From NCBI GenBank assembly GCA_905235635.1, contig CAJOMC010000005.1, positions 14,264-78,263 of the forward strand: a stretch of 64,000 nt of DNA. The letters run 5' to 3'. This DNA comes from an uncultured Bacilli bacterium (GTDB lineage: Bacteria; Bacillota_I; Bacilli_A; Izemoplasmatales; UBA1188). A model generated the notes under the pieces. That model saw only the letters and a program-made list of their open reading frames with translations. It had not been told where the DNA came from and did no database searches. Position 1 is the stretch's first letter, and every line of letters begins with the position of its first letter. The position numbers and the translations under genes were made by a program. Positions 56,852 through 64,000 of this stretch are shown piece by piece.

Positions 56852-56925
56852 AAATTGACTTTCATTTTTTAATCTTATACAATCTAATTGGATTTAAAAA
56901 TAAAATGACTATTATGAGGTTTCAT

Positions 56926-57522
56926 ATGGTCATTTTTGTTTATTTAGATGAATCAGGTTCTATTCATGAAAATAGTAATACTAAATATTTTGCGATAGGT
57001 GGATATCTTGTATCTAAAGAAGATAATCTTAAAGCGATATCTACCTATAAAAGAATTAATAAAAGTATAAAGGATAAATATAATATCCCACTATGTAAGG
57101 AACTTAAATCTTTTAATTATACAGTAAGCGATAAGATAGATATCTTTTTAAATATTCAAAGAATAAGAAGTTATATTGGATGCGCTAAAGTCTTTAGTAA
57201 AGAAGATATGAAAAAGAGCGTAAAAGATGTGAATGTATTTTATAACTATGGAGTAAAACTTCTATTTGATGATTGTATATTAAAACTATTTGATATAGAT
57301 AATATGTCATATCATATAGACTTTATAGTAAATATGGATAATAGAAGTATAAGTGTTGGTAAGCTAAAGGACCTTGAAACTTACCTCAATACTGAATATT
57401 GTCTATATGATATGACATTTAAGGTAACTTACTATGATTCTAAAACAAACTATGGTATACAACTCGCTGACTTAACAGTTAATACTTTTTATAATGTATT
57501 TAAAGATATAAGATGTAGTTAA
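56926..57522 (+). CDS. DUF3800-family protein
   Basis: The preferred start is ATG 56926, after TGAGGT. It has the N-terminal 'VIFVYLDESGS' and the C-terminal 'GIQLADLTVNT', both hallmarks of DUF3800. The gene is very AT-rich and stands alone. Confidence 0.65.
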   Translation: MVIFVYLDESGSIHENSNTKYFAIGGYLVSKEDNLKAISTYKRINKSIKDKYNIPLCKELKSFNYTVSDKIDIFLNIQRIRSYIGCAKVFSKEDMKKSVKDVNVFYNYGVKLLFDDCILKLFDIDNMSYHIDFIVNMDNRSISVGKLKDLETYLNTEYCLYDMTFKVTYYDSKTNYGIQLADLTVNTFYNVFKDIRCS

Positions 57523-59015: not shown

Positions 59016-59044
59016 TTGACATATACTTACATTGATGATAAAAT
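59016..59044 (+). promoter_or_regulatory. Near-consensus sigma-A promoter with extended -10
   Basis: TTGACA (59016-59021), a 17-nt spacer, then TGATAAAAT (59036-59044). Both strings are identical to those of the tRNA promoter at 30604-30631. Confidence 0.75.
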
Positions 59045-59050
59045 TACATT

Positions 59051-59141
59051 ACCTAAGACCTAGGTTAAGGTAACATTGTTTAAGCGTAATATCTAGTACG
59101 TACCCCCTAGGCACTATAAAACAGCTTAAAGCTGTTTTTTT
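59051..59141 (+). ncRNA. Unclassified ~90-nt structured RNA (small RNA or terminator-type 5' leader) ending in an intrinsic terminator
   Basis: The predicted transcription start is about 59051. Hairpin TTACCT...AGGTAA lies at 59050-59075, and two palindromic CCTAGG copies lie at 59059-59064 and 59105-59110. Hairpin TCTAG-TACGTACCCC-CTAGG lies at 59091-59110, followed by an A-rich tail. The terminator is AAAACAGCT/AGCTGTTTT plus a T-run (59118-59141). The stretch contains no ATG. Confidence 0.5.
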
Positions 59142-59215
59142 ATTTGCTTTTTCAAAAATATTTATTTATTTTTATATAAAATTATATAATAATAAATAAT
59201 GACGGAGGCACTCAT

Positions 59216-60571
59216 ATGAACCTTGAGCACTTTAAAGAAATATTAACTAAAAATGCAGTATATCTATATCCAAACATTAGAATTTCTAATGAAATATCGT
59301 TCCCAGGGAATGAACTTGTAGTACTAAATGAAGATGGTACTATGAACGCTAAAGGCGATATATCACAAGATACTGGATATCGTATCTCTCGTGAACAACC
59401 TTTTCTTCCTAATGATGTAGATTTACTAACTATTTTTATAGAAGAAAATAACACTATTGAGTCATATCCGAATATTGGTCAAGAATATAAAGAAGCATTT
59501 AAGAGTACCTCACTTACAAAAGCTATTTCAATGACTCTATCACCTAAATCATCTTCAACTATATTAAAGGTGATAGATGCGCTATCTCATATGGCAGAAC
59601 GTACATATGAAGGTGCACCGATTAGAATAGGCGTTATCATTAATGACGTATTGAGTGTTTCAAATAAAAAATCAAATCTATTATTCACTAACTTTATTCA
59701 ATCAAATTATGCAGCCGTTTTAACAAATGGTTCTGAATCATTTATTGAAATAGATAGTGATGGATATATTTATAGATACCTTCAATTAAATAGTGAAAAG
59801 AGTGAATTAGGTCTTGCGCCATATGACTATACAAGAGTTATTCAATATATAGGTAAAGATACTATTGGTATAGTTTTATCGAATAAAGGAGAACTCTTAA
59901 TATTCCACGATAATGAACTTAAATATACTAAACGTGGAGATAGATGGAATCCATATAACCACTCTCAAACTATTAAAGCAATTCATGAAAGAAGTGAAAA
60001 TGATAATTTAATGTTTGCGAGAGCAGTATATTTAACTGCGCTCGATATATCTTTTGGAAAATCAGGCGGTATTATATCTTTCCTAGATGAAAATGAAGTT
60101 GCGAATGCGCTTGCGCATATTAATATTCACGATATCGTTAATGAAAAATATTACAATATAAAACGTGACCTCATGAAAGACCAAGATGACCCTGAATATG
60201 ATCATATCAAAGATTTAACATTTGAAGAATTCTTAGAAGAAAAAGAAAATTCTAAGAGTAGTATGTTGAATAAATTAATTAGTGAGAAGAAGTTTTTCCT
60301 TTTATCTCGTAAATTAAGACAGGAAATAACATCAATTGATGGTGCAACTATCGTTGACTATAATGGAGATGTAGTAGCTTGTGGAGCTATCGTTAAGATT
60401 GAAGCGGGCTCCCTTGGTGGTGGACGCATCGCAGCCGCAAGGACGCTTTCACATTATGGTATTGCGATAGAAATATCTTCAGATGCATCCATTAAAGGTT
60501 TCGCTCTTGATGCATCGGGTGAACCTGAAAGAATTTTCACAATTGCGGACTTTGGAGAAGATTTTAATTAA
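59216..60571 (+). CDS. Hypothetical protein with a degenerate DisA/CdaA-type (DAC-like) nucleotide-binding fold; first gene of the addBA operon
   Basis: The C-terminal 'SIDGATIVDYNGDVVACGAIV...GGGRIAAARTLSHYGIAIEISSDASI' parallels the DAC blocks 'DGAxII..G.i.aA' and 'G(T/M)RHR(A/T)A...a.viSe'. The block 'KSGGIISFLD' parallels 'GALIVI'. Weaker copies of the same blocks lie at about aa 120-240. GGAGG lies 7 nt before the ATG. Confidence 0.5.
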   Translation: MNLEHFKEILTKNAVYLYPNIRISNEISFPGNELVVLNEDGTMNAKGDISQDTGYRISREQPFLPNDVDLLTIFIEENNTIESYPNIGQEYKEAFKSTSLTKAISMTLSPKSSSTILKVIDALSHMAERTYEGAPIRIGVIINDVLSVSNKKSNLLFTNFIQSNYAAVLTNGSESFIEIDSDGYIYRYLQLNSEKSELGLAPYDYTRVIQYIGKDTIGIVLSNKGELLIFHDNELKYTKRGDRWNPYNHSQTIKAIHERSENDNLMFARAVYLTALDISFGKSGGIISFLDENEVANALAHINIHDIVNEKYYNIKRDLMKDQDDPEYDHIKDLTFEEFLEEKENSKSSMLNKLISEKKFFLLSRKLRQEITSIDGATIVDYNGDVVACGAIVKIEAGSLGGGRIAAARTLSHYGIAIEISSDASIKGFALDASGEPERIFTIADFGEDFN

Positions 60572-62826
60572 TGAGTTTTATTAACCAACTAAATAAAGAA
60601 CAAAGAAATATTATTATATGTCCCTCATCTTATAATGAGGGTTTATTTAGTGAAGTAAATAAAGACTTTTTATTTGATGTAGTATTTAAACCCAAGAAAG
60701 AATTTCTTGAAAATATCTTTGGGTCATATACTGAAATTGAAGTAGAAAGCGATGGAACGCTTAATGGAGTTATACCTTTATTCCTTAATAAAGGCTATAC
60801 AGTTGATGCGATAGAAAATATCATATCTAATATGCCTTTAATTAGCGATAAATATCCAGAATTAGAAAAATTCCATAATTTAAATGAAGGTTTTATAAAC
60901 TATTATAAAGATAAAAATATCTTATATACAATGGATAATTTATTTGATCCAGTATTTCTTTATGCGATTAAATATTTAAGTGAACTTGGAATCGAGTTAA
61001 AACAAATATTATTTGAAGACGTAAAAGGGGAAGCCCTTTATAAAGAATATGAAAATATAATAAAAGAGGTTGAAGGTGCATCGGATTATATTTCATATCT
61101 CCTTCTAAATGGTGTTGATATTAATAAGATAAAGGTTCAAATTAATGGAACAGACTATAAAGAATTAATTAGAGATGTATTCTCTTTTTACCCATTTAAG
61201 AATGCATTTTATATAAACGATAGATATACCCTTTTTGAAAAAGATAGAATACTTTCGTTCTTTAATTCTCTAAAAGATAATAAACTAGATACATCGCTTG
61301 AAACTTTAAACAGTTATAAAGAAGAACTAGATGTTGATTCATATAATGTACTCGCGAATATGCTTAGTGGAACAAAACTCCCACTTGAATATTTTAAATA
61401 TAAGCTTCAAAACAGTTATATTAAACAACCGAAATATAATAACGCTATTGAAGTTGGAAATGTAATAAATAGATATCTTCCATCAGACACTTACCTTATT
61501 ATTCTTGGAGCTAATTCTGGCCTTTTCCCAAAAACAATTGTTTTATCTGGTGAGTTAACTGATAATATATTAAAAGAAATTCATACATCCGACAAAGATA
61601 TAAATACGACCAATGAAAAATACTATCTATCAAAGATATATTCTTTGAAACATGTATATATTTCATCATATTTAAAAGGAACAACCAAGAACTTTACTAA
61701 GTCTCCGTTCCTCTTTAAAATCCTTGATCTAAAGGAATATGTCCCTAGTGGCAATCATTATTCTAAATGTAGAGATTATTTAAAATTTAAGAAAGCTTTT
61801 GATGAATATGTAACATATGGTTCTAAAACATCTGATTATAAAAGGTTCTCTAAGTTACTCGCTGACGAAGACTACAAAAAATTTACAAATATTTACGACT
61901 CAACAATGTCTTATACAGATTTCGATAACTTTAAAGAACTTGTTGGCAAAAAACTCATGTTATCATACTCAAAGATGAACGAATATAATGAGTGCCCATT
62001 TAAATACTATTATGGGCATATATTAAAACTTGATCCATTCGAAAATTCACTCGCAACATTTATAGGTAATTTCTTTCATAAGATAATGGAAAATTATATT
62101 GATAGTGAGTTTCCGCTTGATGAAGAAACCTTAGAAATAGAGTTTGAAAAGTTTATTAAAACTGAGCCATACAAGTTAACTATTAAGGATAGGGTTATTA
62201 TTAAAATGTTTTATTCTGTAGTTATAGACGTCTATTATAAAACAAAGAGCCTAAATCTTGATGGCGGCTTTAAGGTTTATGCAAAAGAGTTAGAAATTAA
62301 TAAAGTTGAAGATTCTATAGATGATTTAGAGATTGAGTTTAATGGTAAGATTGACCTTGTATTAAAAGATGATAATGACAATACTATCGTTGTTGATTAT
62401 AAAACTGGACATTATCCTAAGACCAATTATGAGAAAGGTACTGGTTTACAACAGTTAGTTTATTTTAATGTTTTAAAAGAAACAAATGTAGATGAAACCT
62501 TTGTTCCTGCGGGTTTCATATTTGAAGTTGTCCCTATTAAAAAAAGGGGTGGTGAACTTAAAAAGATTTCGTGTTATGGTGAATTGCTTTTTGATTCATC
62601 AGTTAACTATGGTGAAATTAAGGTTAATAAACAATCGTGGAAATCAAAAGAAGAAATTGAGGATCACCTAATGCAAACTAAGGAAATTATAGAAAAAACT
62701 AAAAATTCTATACTTAGTTTAGATTTTAAACAAAGCCCAGGTGATGAAGCGTGTGATTATTGTTCATTTAAAGAGGTTTGTTACAAATATAACTTCGAGA
62801 ATGATGAAAACGAGGAGGATGAATAA
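60571..62826 (+). CDS. addB: AddB/RexB-like helicase-nuclease subunit (short form, PD-(D/E)XK nuclease with Fe-S cysteines)
   Basis: The C terminus has 'CPFKYYYGHIL', 'GKIDLVLKD...VVDYKTG' (D...D-x-K) and 'CDYCSFKEVC', the 1+3 Cys cluster of AddB. I see no N-terminal Walker A. Both junctions are TAATG. Confidence 0.75.
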   Translation: MSFINQLNKEQRNIIICPSSYNEGLFSEVNKDFLFDVVFKPKKEFLENIFGSYTEIEVESDGTLNGVIPLFLNKGYTVDAIENIISNMPLISDKYPELEKFHNLNEGFINYYKDKNILYTMDNLFDPVFLYAIKYLSELGIELKQILFEDVKGEALYKEYENIIKEVEGASDYISYLLLNGVDINKIKVQINGTDYKELIRDVFSFYPFKNAFYINDRYTLFEKDRILSFFNSLKDNKLDTSLETLNSYKEELDVDSYNVLANMLSGTKLPLEYFKYKLQNSYIKQPKYNNAIEVGNVINRYLPSDTYLIILGANSGLFPKTIVLSGELTDNILKEIHTSDKDINTTNEKYYLSKIYSLKHVYISSYLKGTTKNFTKSPFLFKILDLKEYVPSGNHYSKCRDYLKFKKAFDEYVTYGSKTSDYKRFSKLLADEDYKKFTNIYDSTMSYTDFDNFKELVGKKLMLSYSKMNEYNECPFKYYYGHILKLDPFENSLATFIGNFFHKIMENYIDSEFPLDEETLEIEFEKFIKTEPYKLTIKDRVIIKMFYSVVIDVYYKTKSLNLDGGFKVYAKELEINKVEDSIDDLEIEFNGKIDLVLKDDNDNTIVVDYKTGHYPKTNYEKGTGLQQLVYFNVLKETNVDETFVPAGFIFEVVPIKKRGGELKKISCYGELLFDSSVNYGEIKVNKQSWKSKEEIEDHLMQTKEIIEKTKNSILSLDFKQSPGDEACDYCSFKEVCYKYNFENDENEEDE

Positions 62827-64000
62827 TGTCTAATTTTACAGATGAGCAATTAAATGTCATCCGCCATCGTGGTGGTAATTTATTAGTTTCTGCAGGTGCA
62901 GGTTCTGGTAAAACAACAACTATGACCGAAAGAATAATCAGCCTACTTAGAGGAGATAATGGATTTGAGCCAATTCATCTATCTAATCTTATTGTTTTAA
63001 CATTCACAGATGCTGCAGCTAAAAATATCAAAGAAAAGATTATTAAAGAATTATCAAATAAAGAAAGTTTAATTGAAGAGTTAAATCATATCGAGGAAGC
63101 AGATATTTCAACGTTTGATGCTTTTTGTCACAAATTCGTTAAAAAGTATTCATCCAAATCCATTTTGCCAAAAAACTTTACAATAGGCGATAGCATTTTT
63201 TTCAATGTTAAAGCAAAAACTTTTATTAATGAAATACTCTTAGATTATTATAATAATCCTACATATCAAAATTCAGATTTTTATAAAAACAATTCTAATA
63301 CGGATACTTTTATTAAAATTCTTGAGAATACATCAAAGGGTAAAAATGATGACAATCTTGTTAAGAATTTATTGGACTATTATAAAGCGATTAATAATGA
63401 AATTGATGTAGACAAGTATCTTTCAACATATATGGACACATATTTCAGCAAAGATTATGCTGAATACCTTTTACATATATCTGTTGATTATATTAGAGAG
63501 CTTGTTGGTATAGCGTTAAATCTAGATATATTAGATAAGAATTTAATTAAAAAAGCTGCTGATGATAAGAAAGATGAAGAAGCAATACAGTTTATCTATT
63601 CAACAATAGATCAGTTTAATTCTTTTCTTAGTATTAAAAATGATGAAGAAGCTTTTAAGTATTTCCACACCTTCGCTAAAAATGATTCCGGGTCTGGCTC
63701 GATCAAAAAAGTAATTGGTATTGATATAACTAAACAATATAATTTTATTAAAACAGACATTTTTGACAATGCGTCAAGATATAACTCTAAGGGCAATGAA
63801 GTAACGGATAGATTATTTTACAATGTATTCTTTGAAATGGATGTTAACTCACTAGAGCCTGTAGATGCTTTTCATAAGACAATTCGAGGCAACAAAGAAT
63901 ACTATAAATTTATCAATGATGTAATGATTGAATTACACAAAAAGATGAAGATATATAAGAAAGAATATTCTATCTATGAATTTCAAGATATAGAAAAAGA
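62826..64000 (+). CDS. addA: AddA/RexA helicase-nuclease subunit (UvrD-like), 3' end beyond the window
   Basis: The ATG at 62826 overlaps the addB TAA. It has 'FTDEQLNVIRHRGGNLLVSAGAGSGKTTTMTERI' (UvrD motifs Q and I). The frame is open to nt 64000. It is absent from the ORF track because no stop lies in the window. Confidence 0.85.
   Translation, partial: MSNFTDEQLNVIRHRGGNLLVSAGAGSGKTTTMTERIISLLRGDNGFEPIHLSNLIVLTFTDAAAKNIKEKIIKELSNKESLIEELNHIEEADISTFDAFCHKFVKKYSSKSILPKNFTIGDSIFFNVKAKTFINEILLDYYNNPTYQNSDFYKNNSNTDTFIKILENTSKGKNDDNLVKNLLDYYKAINNEIDVDKYLSTYMDTYFSKDYAEYLLHISVDYIRELVGIALNLDILDKNLIKKAADDKKDEEAIQFIYSTIDQFNSFLSIKNDEEAFKYFHTFAKNDSGSGSIKKVIGIDITKQYNFIKTDIFDNASRYNSKGNEVTDRLFYNVFFEMDVNSLEPVDAFHKTIRGNKEYYKFINDVMIELHKKMKIYKKEYSIYEFQDIEK

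Follow-up and report, generated by a model that had tools for sequence, protein, structure and literature searches.

Is the gene that stands immediately in front of addB and addA in this stretch of DNA a third part of the AddAB machine, or an unrelated gene that shares an operon with it? The gene in question, here called X, encodes a protein of 451 amino acids (aa) and lies in 64,000 nucleotides (nt) of contig CAJOMC010000005.1 (assembly GCA_905235635.1, positions 14,264 to 78,263 of the forward strand) from an uncultured Bacilli bacterium of the lineage UBA1188 (Izemoplasmatales); this whole stretch is referred to below as the window. In the window X has lon, a DUF3800 gene and a GH5 gene on one side and addB-addA on the other, and X and addB-addA form a single close-spaced cluster on the same strand. 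Canonical AddAB is a two-subunit enzyme, and we know of no described AddAB system with a third, diadenylate cyclase (DAC)-like gene; a full-text search that joined 'diadenylate cyclase' with 'AddAB' gave DisA papers only. A reading of the DNA from its letters (the sequence-only reading) had taken X for a degenerate DAC-fold protein and an apparent third component of the enzyme. The answer favoured by our analysis, to which we give a probability of roughly 0.65, is that X belongs to a branch of the DAC/DisA_N superfamily and is not a core third subunit, but an independent and strongly conserved gene with a housekeeping or signalling role that here happens to be in one operon with AddAB.

The C-terminal domain and its family

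An AlphaFold2 model of X built on 27 homologues (predicted local distance difference test, pLDDT, 89.6; predicted template-modelling score, pTM, 0.87) was compared with the Protein Data Bank (PDB) using Foldseek, and the top 43 matches were all to CdaA, DacA or DisA (probability 1.00, E-values from 4e-4), after which the list dropped straight to noise. A scan of 112 relatives of X, one by one, against Pfam and NCBIfam showed PF02457 (DisA_N) to be the sole recurring Pfam family (30/112 at E<=0.1; best E 4.8e-7) and NF053872 the sole recurring NCBIfam model (34/112; best E 1.1e-4). Three of ten relatives that were scanned individually also matched PF02457, all below threshold. For the comparison with CdaA we used the Listeria monocytogenes and Bacillus subtilis sequences, confirmed against the PDB, together with a 120-sequence CdaA profile; hhalign of X with this profile (P 0.0024) aligned the DGA motif of one on the DGA motif of the other. 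Judged from the model and these alignments, the C-terminal ~200 aa of X has the DAC (DisA_N) fold, and the proposal of such a fold in the sequence-only reading is borne out by the structural matches, by the relatives and by the hhalign register.

Some results pull the other way. The Foldseek template-modelling (TM) scores of X against the DAC targets are modest (~0.5, with a root-mean-square deviation of 4-6 Å), the window protein itself gives no match to PF02457 at E<=1 (gathering score 27 bits), and HMMER profiles of the family (A1, A2 and A3) searched against the PDB returned noise and did not reach the DAC chains. For these three reasons the DAC homology of X is drawn from several weak lines that converge, and from transitivity through its relatives.

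The family to which X belongs is large. A word-indexed homologue search with X gave 28 matches, all unnamed or 'hypothetical' and from rumen or gut metagenome assemblies, and an exhaustive profile search, counted in clusters of 50% identity, gave 1409 representatives at E<=1e-3 (474 at E<=1e-30). The members come from Clostridia/Christensenellales, low-GC Bacilli metagenome-assembled genomes (MAGs), Desulfovibrio (D. desulfuricans) and Bipolaricaulota, and one Desulfovibrio-type member already bears the UniRef name 'DAC domain-containing protein'. The window protein found zero matches in Pfam, in PADLOC or among PDB sequences (phmmer), and in NCBIfam a faint match to NF053872 (DS2_3; 13.1 bits, E 0.023, 32 residues, cut-off 630 bits). 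No PDB match was obtained by phmmer with the C-terminal domain of one relative, and a viral fold search of BFVD likewise gave nothing. The family has no curated Pfam or NCBIfam model, and X probably represents a motif-variant branch of the DAC superfamily that is new with respect to Pfam and NCBIfam. Since the family escapes the thresholds of both databases, it will be missed by DAC censuses based on hidden Markov models, for example the Pfam-based gut survey (PMC12901056).

The nucleotide site and what the protein may do

Conservation was read column by column from 163 family representatives with ~25% overall identity. The blocks on which the DAC-like reading of the C-terminus had been founded (GGIISFLD, DGATIVDYNGDVVACGAIV and GGGRIAAARTLSHYGIAIEISSD) are present in X and coincide with the best-conserved columns of its family, with a conservation far above chance. 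Six residues are invariant in 163/163 (D375, G376, G390, R404, S421 and G284), D423, D277 and R365 are kept in 162/163, R368 in 161/163 and G402 in at least 99%, and A377 of the DGA motif is Ala in 153/163. In place of the Thr-Arg-His-Arg loop the family has the pattern GSxGGGRxAA. The hhalign register sets G403, R404, I405 and A406 opposite T202, R203, H204 and R205 of CdaA, which confirms the replacement of RHR by RIA that had been noticed earlier and extends it to a family-wide R-x-A: His does not occur at position 405, nor Arg at position 406, which is Ala in 156/163, and 0/163 representatives carry His or a further Arg where RHR would stand. S421 is aligned with S222 of CdaA and D423 is adjacent to E224/T225, and two extra near-invariant arginines (R365 and R368) lie on the helix preceding the loop. 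Calling this site 'degenerate', as had been done, does not describe it well, as throughout the family GSxGGGRxAA, DGA, S421 and D423 vary little or not at all. The conservation of the variant site in all these representatives argues for a re-tooled ligand or active site and not for drift.

Two residues before S421, position 419 (nt 60470-60472) is Lys in 144/163 representatives and Glu in the window protein and 17 others. Among the carriers of Glu419 are those addBA-linked relatives that were checked in alignment A1 (the rows at least 58% identical to window X), and this charge reversal beside the putative active site may mark a functional shift in the clade.

Three parts make up the N-terminal 250 aa of X, namely a small alpha/beta unit, a set of three helices and a middle domain rich in beta structure; TYEG (130-133), P202 and W244 are invariant. 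No relatives of this module were detected: its profile had no match in the PDB and no Pfam family recurred in it among the 112 relatives. It presumably is a sensor or regulatory part. A weaker copy of the C-terminal blocks had been seen at aa 120-240 and taken to make X a tandem pseudo-dimer. The strings are there, and in a profile-profile alignment of aa 125-250 with aa 250-451 the blocks brought together are exactly those that had been paired, but a resemblance beyond chance was not confirmed (P = 0.008, 62 columns). Residues 62-250, modelled separately (pLDDT 89.2), gave no DAC match and no significant match of any kind in a Foldseek search of the PDB (best E 0.63), and the middle module compared with the CdaA profile gave a short out-of-register match and nothing in register. 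We therefore reject a tandem DAC pseudo-dimer on the internal P-value and on the lack of a DAC fold match or CdaA-profile match for the middle domain; a very old duplication may nevertheless lie behind the middle and C-terminal domains.

Comparison with known systems places X outside each of them. CdaA/DacA (PF02457; L. monocytogenes CdaA, PDB 4RV7/6HVL) shares with the DAC domain of X its alpha/beta fold (Foldseek) and the order of its motifs, namely a G-x-hydrophobic beta1, the DGA strand, a Gly/Arg loop with an AA helix and an S-x-acidic strand, and in both proteins the DAC domain is C-terminal, behind a regulatory N-terminal part. Unlike CdaA, which has a transmembrane CdaA_N domain, X has no PF19293 match and carries its 250-aa soluble module instead; CdaA stands in the context cdaA-cdaR-glmM, whereas X has neither cdaR nor glmM as a neighbour; the CdaA loop LGTRHRAA contrasts with GGGRxAA in X; and the clade of X has a ~55-aa helical insertion between beta1 and the DGA strand. 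DisA, with its radA-disA arrangement, resembles X as a DAC-fold protein beside recombination genes, and it is a sensor of branched DNA that has RadA/RecA as interaction partners. However, DisA has an N-terminal DAC domain, a helical spine and a C-terminal helix-hairpin-helix (HhH) and forms octamers, whereas the DAC domain of X is C-terminal and no HhH appeared in the Pfam scan; DisA also keeps RHR and has RadA/RecA as partner, whereas X lacks RHR and lies beside AddAB. NF053872 (DS2_3) is, by its name, the third gene of Liu-DS2 'CBASS-DAC', a defence system, and presumably its DAC-domain protein. The weak similarity of this model to the relatives of X is centred on the DGA strand, and the model is long (576 positions) with a late DGA strand (positions 412-443), as is X. 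CBASS-DAC has a cGAS-like cyclase together with a patatin effector, neither of which is found next to X, and the context of X is housekeeping and not a defence island, except in one HU-fused relative (P0085). With no RHR and with another architecture and context, X is outside the CdaA, DisA and CBASS-DAC families, and inside the DAC superfamily at fold level.

Judged by the conserved residues, the DAC domain of X would still be able to bind a metal as well as an adenine nucleotide, by means of DGA, D423 and the Arg-containing Gly-rich loop. DGA and D423 would retain their part in ribose and metal contacts, and phosphate binding would be taken over by the Gly-rich loop and R404, perhaps with R365 and R368. 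X would thus be a nucleotide-dependent signalling enzyme or switch controlled by its N-terminal module, acting probably as a face-to-face homo-oligomer by analogy with other DACs, and its product may be c-di-AMP (cyclic di-AMP), another (di)nucleotide, or none at all if X is a pure binder.

At one end of this range X could be a bona fide diadenylate cyclase, possibly the main c-di-AMP synthase of the lineage, in which the Gly-rich loop with R404, R365 and R368 replaces RHR and the position in front of addBA is irrelevant. The DAC fold fits such an enzyme, as do the invariance or near-invariance of R404 and of the metal and ribose ligand equivalents (DGA, S421 and D423), and a canonical GTRHR-type DAC was not found in the 64-kb window. 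Small-genome Mollicutes, for their part, have a minimal DAC, CdaM, which adds to the case. In CBASS-DAC (Liu-DS2) a divergent DAC protein makes the signal possible, being the component needed for immune-signal production (PMC13069673), and 34/112 relatives of X are weakly similar to it. Nevertheless, RHR is needed in DisA, as its change to AAA in the Mycobacterium tuberculosis protein abolished both ATP binding and cyclase activity (PMC3328451), and no member of the X family keeps the His or the second Arg. X may therefore have no cyclase activity, a point which also counts against our preferred reading. Many X-carrying Clostridia are moreover expected to have CdaA and/or DisA too, and a class of the X type is not among the recognised cyclases of the gut survey, in which every recovered DAC was assigned to CdaA, DisA, CdaS or DacZ (PMC12901056). 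We consider a true cyclase possible, though doubtful.

At the other end, and with odds that we put no higher, X could be a catalytically dead pseudo-enzyme whose DAC-like pocket serves as a nucleotide receptor (for ATP, ADP or c-di-AMP) or as a protein-interaction scaffold. The loss of the equivalents of T202, H204 and R205 is what such a protein would show, and there is one DAC domain per chain, a second copy being unsupported. The invariant D375 (the catalytic Asp) and S421 and the near-invariant D423 fit an active site better, however, than they fit a simple binding pocket.

Linkage to addB and addA

The open reading frame (ORF) of 451 aa and the two TAATG stop/start overlaps that join it to addB, and addB to addA, are present as had been described (Table 1). 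The stoichiometric co-expression that had been deduced from them does not follow, because such overlaps are the norm in this window and are thus weakly informative on a link to AddAB: 18/35 pairs of same-strand ORF neighbours in the 64 kb abut or overlap by no more than 3 nt, and mutS2/truB (ATGA) and truB/ribF (TAATG), which overlap in the same way, are pairs that form no complexes. The TAATG overlap as evidence for a stoichiometric complex is accordingly rejected. In this lineage X, which lies between lon and addB-addA, is probably co-transcribed with addBA and translationally coupled to addB.

Table 1. Features of gene X and of the two genes downstream (window positions)
Feature	Position	Strand	Basis and remarks
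Shine-Dalgarno of gene X, GGAGG	59205..59209	+	7 nt 5' of the ATG at 59216; read from sequence
Gene X, 451 aa, ATG start	59216..60571	+	ORF; N-terminal ~250-aa module and C-terminal divergent DAC domain
N-terminal module of X, aa 1-250	59216..59965	+	Secondary structure, invariant columns
C-terminal DAC (DisA_N)-like domain of X, aa ~251-451	59966..60568	+	Foldseek, PF02457 in relatives, hhalign; helical insertion at aa ~300-355
DGA motif D375-G376-A377	60338..60346	+	hhalign register equals CdaA D171-G172-A173
GGGRIAA, aa 401-407	60416..60436	+	hhalign counterpart of the DAC loop LGTRHRAA
S421-S422-D423	60476..60484	+	hhalign counterpart of CdaA S222-E223-E224/T225 ('VSEE')
X/addB stop/start overlap TAATG	60569..60573	+	Read from sequence
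Short addB, 751 aa, PD-(D/E)XK nuclease domain with 4-Cys iron-sulphur (Fe-S) signature	60571..62826	+	PF12705 4e-29
Terminator-like hairpin and T-run inside addB	60622..60641	+	50 nt into addB; candidate attenuator, status uncertain
addB/addA stop/start overlap TAATG	62824..62828	+	Read from sequence
addA (UvrD-type helicase), N-terminal 391 aa, runs past the window end	62826..64000	+	PF00580 2.5e-28; TIGR02785 addA_Gpos 9e-35, model positions 1-365; Walker A GAGSGKT

The gene order itself is conserved within one clade. Directly 3' of X, addB-addA are found in the window and in six further species-level genomes (L003/L016, also of UBA1188, L013, L014, L015, L017 and L018), all low-GC rumen or gut Bacilli MAGs whose X shares at least 62% identity with that of the window. 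The X-addB junctions measure -1 nt in the window and in L013, +2 in L014, +7 in L017 and +9 in L003. Identities within this clade are 63-65% for X, 30-33% for AddB, ~30-43% for AddA and ~76% for Lon, values which indicate that X is under strong purifying selection in the clade, and since AddB is just 30-33% identical among these species, the order X-addB-addA has survived considerable divergence.

Beyond the clade the association was not seen. The next-closest clade (L019 and L011; X 44-45% identical) has lon-X followed by a gene for a gltD-like oxidoreductase, no addAB was found within 8 kb of X in L019 (44% identity) or in ~74 Clostridia loci, and none lay beside the other family members that were looked up individually, which makes more than 75 loci outside the clade in total. 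The reciprocal survey turned up seven more distant short-addB loci that have no X; where the sequence 5' of addB was long enough, unrelated genes were seen there, at one locus those for a pseudouridine synthase and for a small alarmone synthetase, at another those for NUDIX and DUF4176 proteins. A linkage of X and addAB conserved across lineages was therefore not found, which is largely the outcome that the sequence-only reading had named as refuting its proposal, and of the proposed third AddAB component the tight X-addB-addA order stands, in seven genomes, but its generality does not, as the distant short-addB operons lack X. With the tight placement confined to one small rumen and gut group, a role of X as third subunit of AddAB in general is improbable. 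The idea that X is the detached N-terminal half of a long AddB (451 + 751, or ~1200 aa) was also considered and rejected, as X has a DAC and not a helicase fold and occurs alone far from addB.

A narrower proposal is that, in this lineage, X regulates AddAB or belongs to it as an accessory subunit, binding AddB and/or DNA ends and coupling or gating resection by a nucleotide signal in the manner of DisA. The unit begins with X, behind an upstream terminator, and DisA offers a precedent with its branched DNA and its RadA/RecA partners. Several further observations favour this proposal and count against an independent gene. Despite ~70% divergence of AddB, the distance from X to addB stays between -1 and +9 nt in the six related species-level genomes. 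In Clostridia, RarA/MgsA is found at +2 from X in 38/72 loci, with PolA further downstream, and in one other locus (L094) uvrC is convergent on X. Two relatives have N-terminal fusions to DNA-binding domains, one to HU (P0085; PF00216, 1.2e-24) and one to Schlafen AlbA_2 (P0040; PF04326, 6.5e-7). The kept spacing, the recurrence of repair genes near X and these fusions leave room for a real link to DNA repair. Against this, more than 90% of the sampled family loci show no such linkage, including the next-closest clade with its gltD-like gene after lon-X, and the distant short-addB operons lack X; canonical AddAB works with two subunits; gene overlaps are usual in this genome even for unrelated enzymes; and the Clostridia loci with their repair genes are not independent, as most belong to one syntenic block. 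A hairpin 50 nt into addB, present in two species, would also uncouple the expression levels if functional. We regard an AddAB accessory subunit as unlikely, and likewise judge improbable a DisA/RadA-like functional tie of X to break repair in this lineage. Less probable still is the most far-reaching version, in which X would be a new DAC-superfamily class (with a GSxGGGRxAA phosphate loop and a sensor module) that makes or senses a nucleotide signal at DNA ends or breaks, as a dedicated AddAB partner and DisA-like checkpoint on resection in this lineage, and in which the HU/AlbA_2 fusions and the RarA, PolA and UvrC neighbourhoods would mirror the same DNA-centred role.

The hairpin in addB has a free energy of -12.1 kcal/mol and a z-score of -3.0. 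It is kept in L013 (9409-9430) by a synonymous compensatory pair (CCC/GAG versus CCT/GAA, with the peptide CPSSYNEG in both) and is missing from L014 and L003. A possible role for it is that of an intragenic attenuator between X and addBA; if functional, it would lower the expression of addBA relative to X.

Surroundings of X and meaning of the family

The two genes 3' of X encode AddB and AddA in the usual addB-addA order. AddB is 751 aa long as compared with ~1160 positions in the Gram-positive addB model, and it matches addB_Gpos and addB_alphas weakly (addB_Gpos 23 bits versus a cut-off of 904); because the addB_Gpos equivalog cut-off is missed so widely, we treat the window protein as a short, divergent AddB. 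Its cysteines C475, C728, C731 and C737 (C...CxxCx5C) are invariant in five orthologues. AddB evolves fast in this lineage, at 30-33% identity between species whose Lon proteins are ~76% identical, yet the four Fe-S cysteines are kept. The AddA orthologues in L003, L013, L014 and L018 retain the RecB-type nuclease motif (GxIDY...IIDFK...QLxTY), and full-length orthologues measure 1026-1049 aa.

Directly 5' of X lies a small RNA (sRNA) candidate (59027-59148, + strand), a full-length match to RF02969 (DUF3800-I RNA; 39.3 bits, E 9e-5) that remains below the gathering score of 44.2. It is framed by a strong extended -10 promoter at 59016-59044 (TTGACA-17-TAAAAT) and, at 59118-59138, by an intrinsic terminator. 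A riboswitch or leader for X was considered at this site and rejected in favour of a DUF3800-I-like sRNA that brings a promoter and a terminator of its own. A DUF3800 gene (56905-57522; PF12686, 3.8e-14) is located 1.5 kb 5' of the sRNA, with the GH5 cellulase gene between them, and since close relatives have lon followed directly by X, the DUF3800 gene, the GH5 gene and the sRNA look like an insertion.

In the Clostridia/Christensenellales loci (L020-L092; for example L007, 7218-7904, and L023, 9684-12425) the sporulation sigma factor SigK stands directly 5' of X in 62/81, and in 38/80 the gene 3' of X encodes a conserved protein of 485 aa that matches nothing in Pfam or NCBIfam. The wider block has plsX-rnc-smc-ftsY upstream of X and PolA downstream, and because the neighbourhood is largely this one conserved syntenic block, the Clostridia loci are non-independent observations. 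In a Desulfovibrio-type member (P0100; L093, 5271-9341) X is preceded by partner-switching proteins, a STAS anti-anti-sigma factor and SpoIIE (PP2C)/HATPase_c_2, and in L094 by a GerE/sigma70_r4-like helix-turn-helix gene. The HU-fused relative P0085 (L096, 8001-9569) is found among Mrr_cat, DUF4365, integrase/recombinase, TerB_N/TerB_C and BrxC/BrxD-like genes, so that its surroundings are those of a mobile or defence island. DNA transactions and sigma-factor control are suggestive themes of these neighbourhoods, though weak and not phylogenetically independent.

The family of X is of moderate interest to the field of c-di-AMP and second messengers, and its reading as a third AddAB subunit is the weakest part of the case. 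The clade-specific X-addBA operon does provide a testable hypothesis of a possible second connection between a DAC and DNA repair, beyond DisA-RadA. The c-di-AMP cyclase classes CdaA, DisA, CdaS, CdaM and DacZ all share DGA and RHR. The X family, at ~1400 clusters of 50% identity from gut and rumen Firmicutes, Desulfovibrio and others, has the DAC fold and DGA, yet a different and strictly conserved phosphate loop, together with the 250-aa N-terminal module. If X is inactive, the family would be a conserved nucleotide receptor; if it is active, it would widen the chemistry or the regulation of DAC enzymes.

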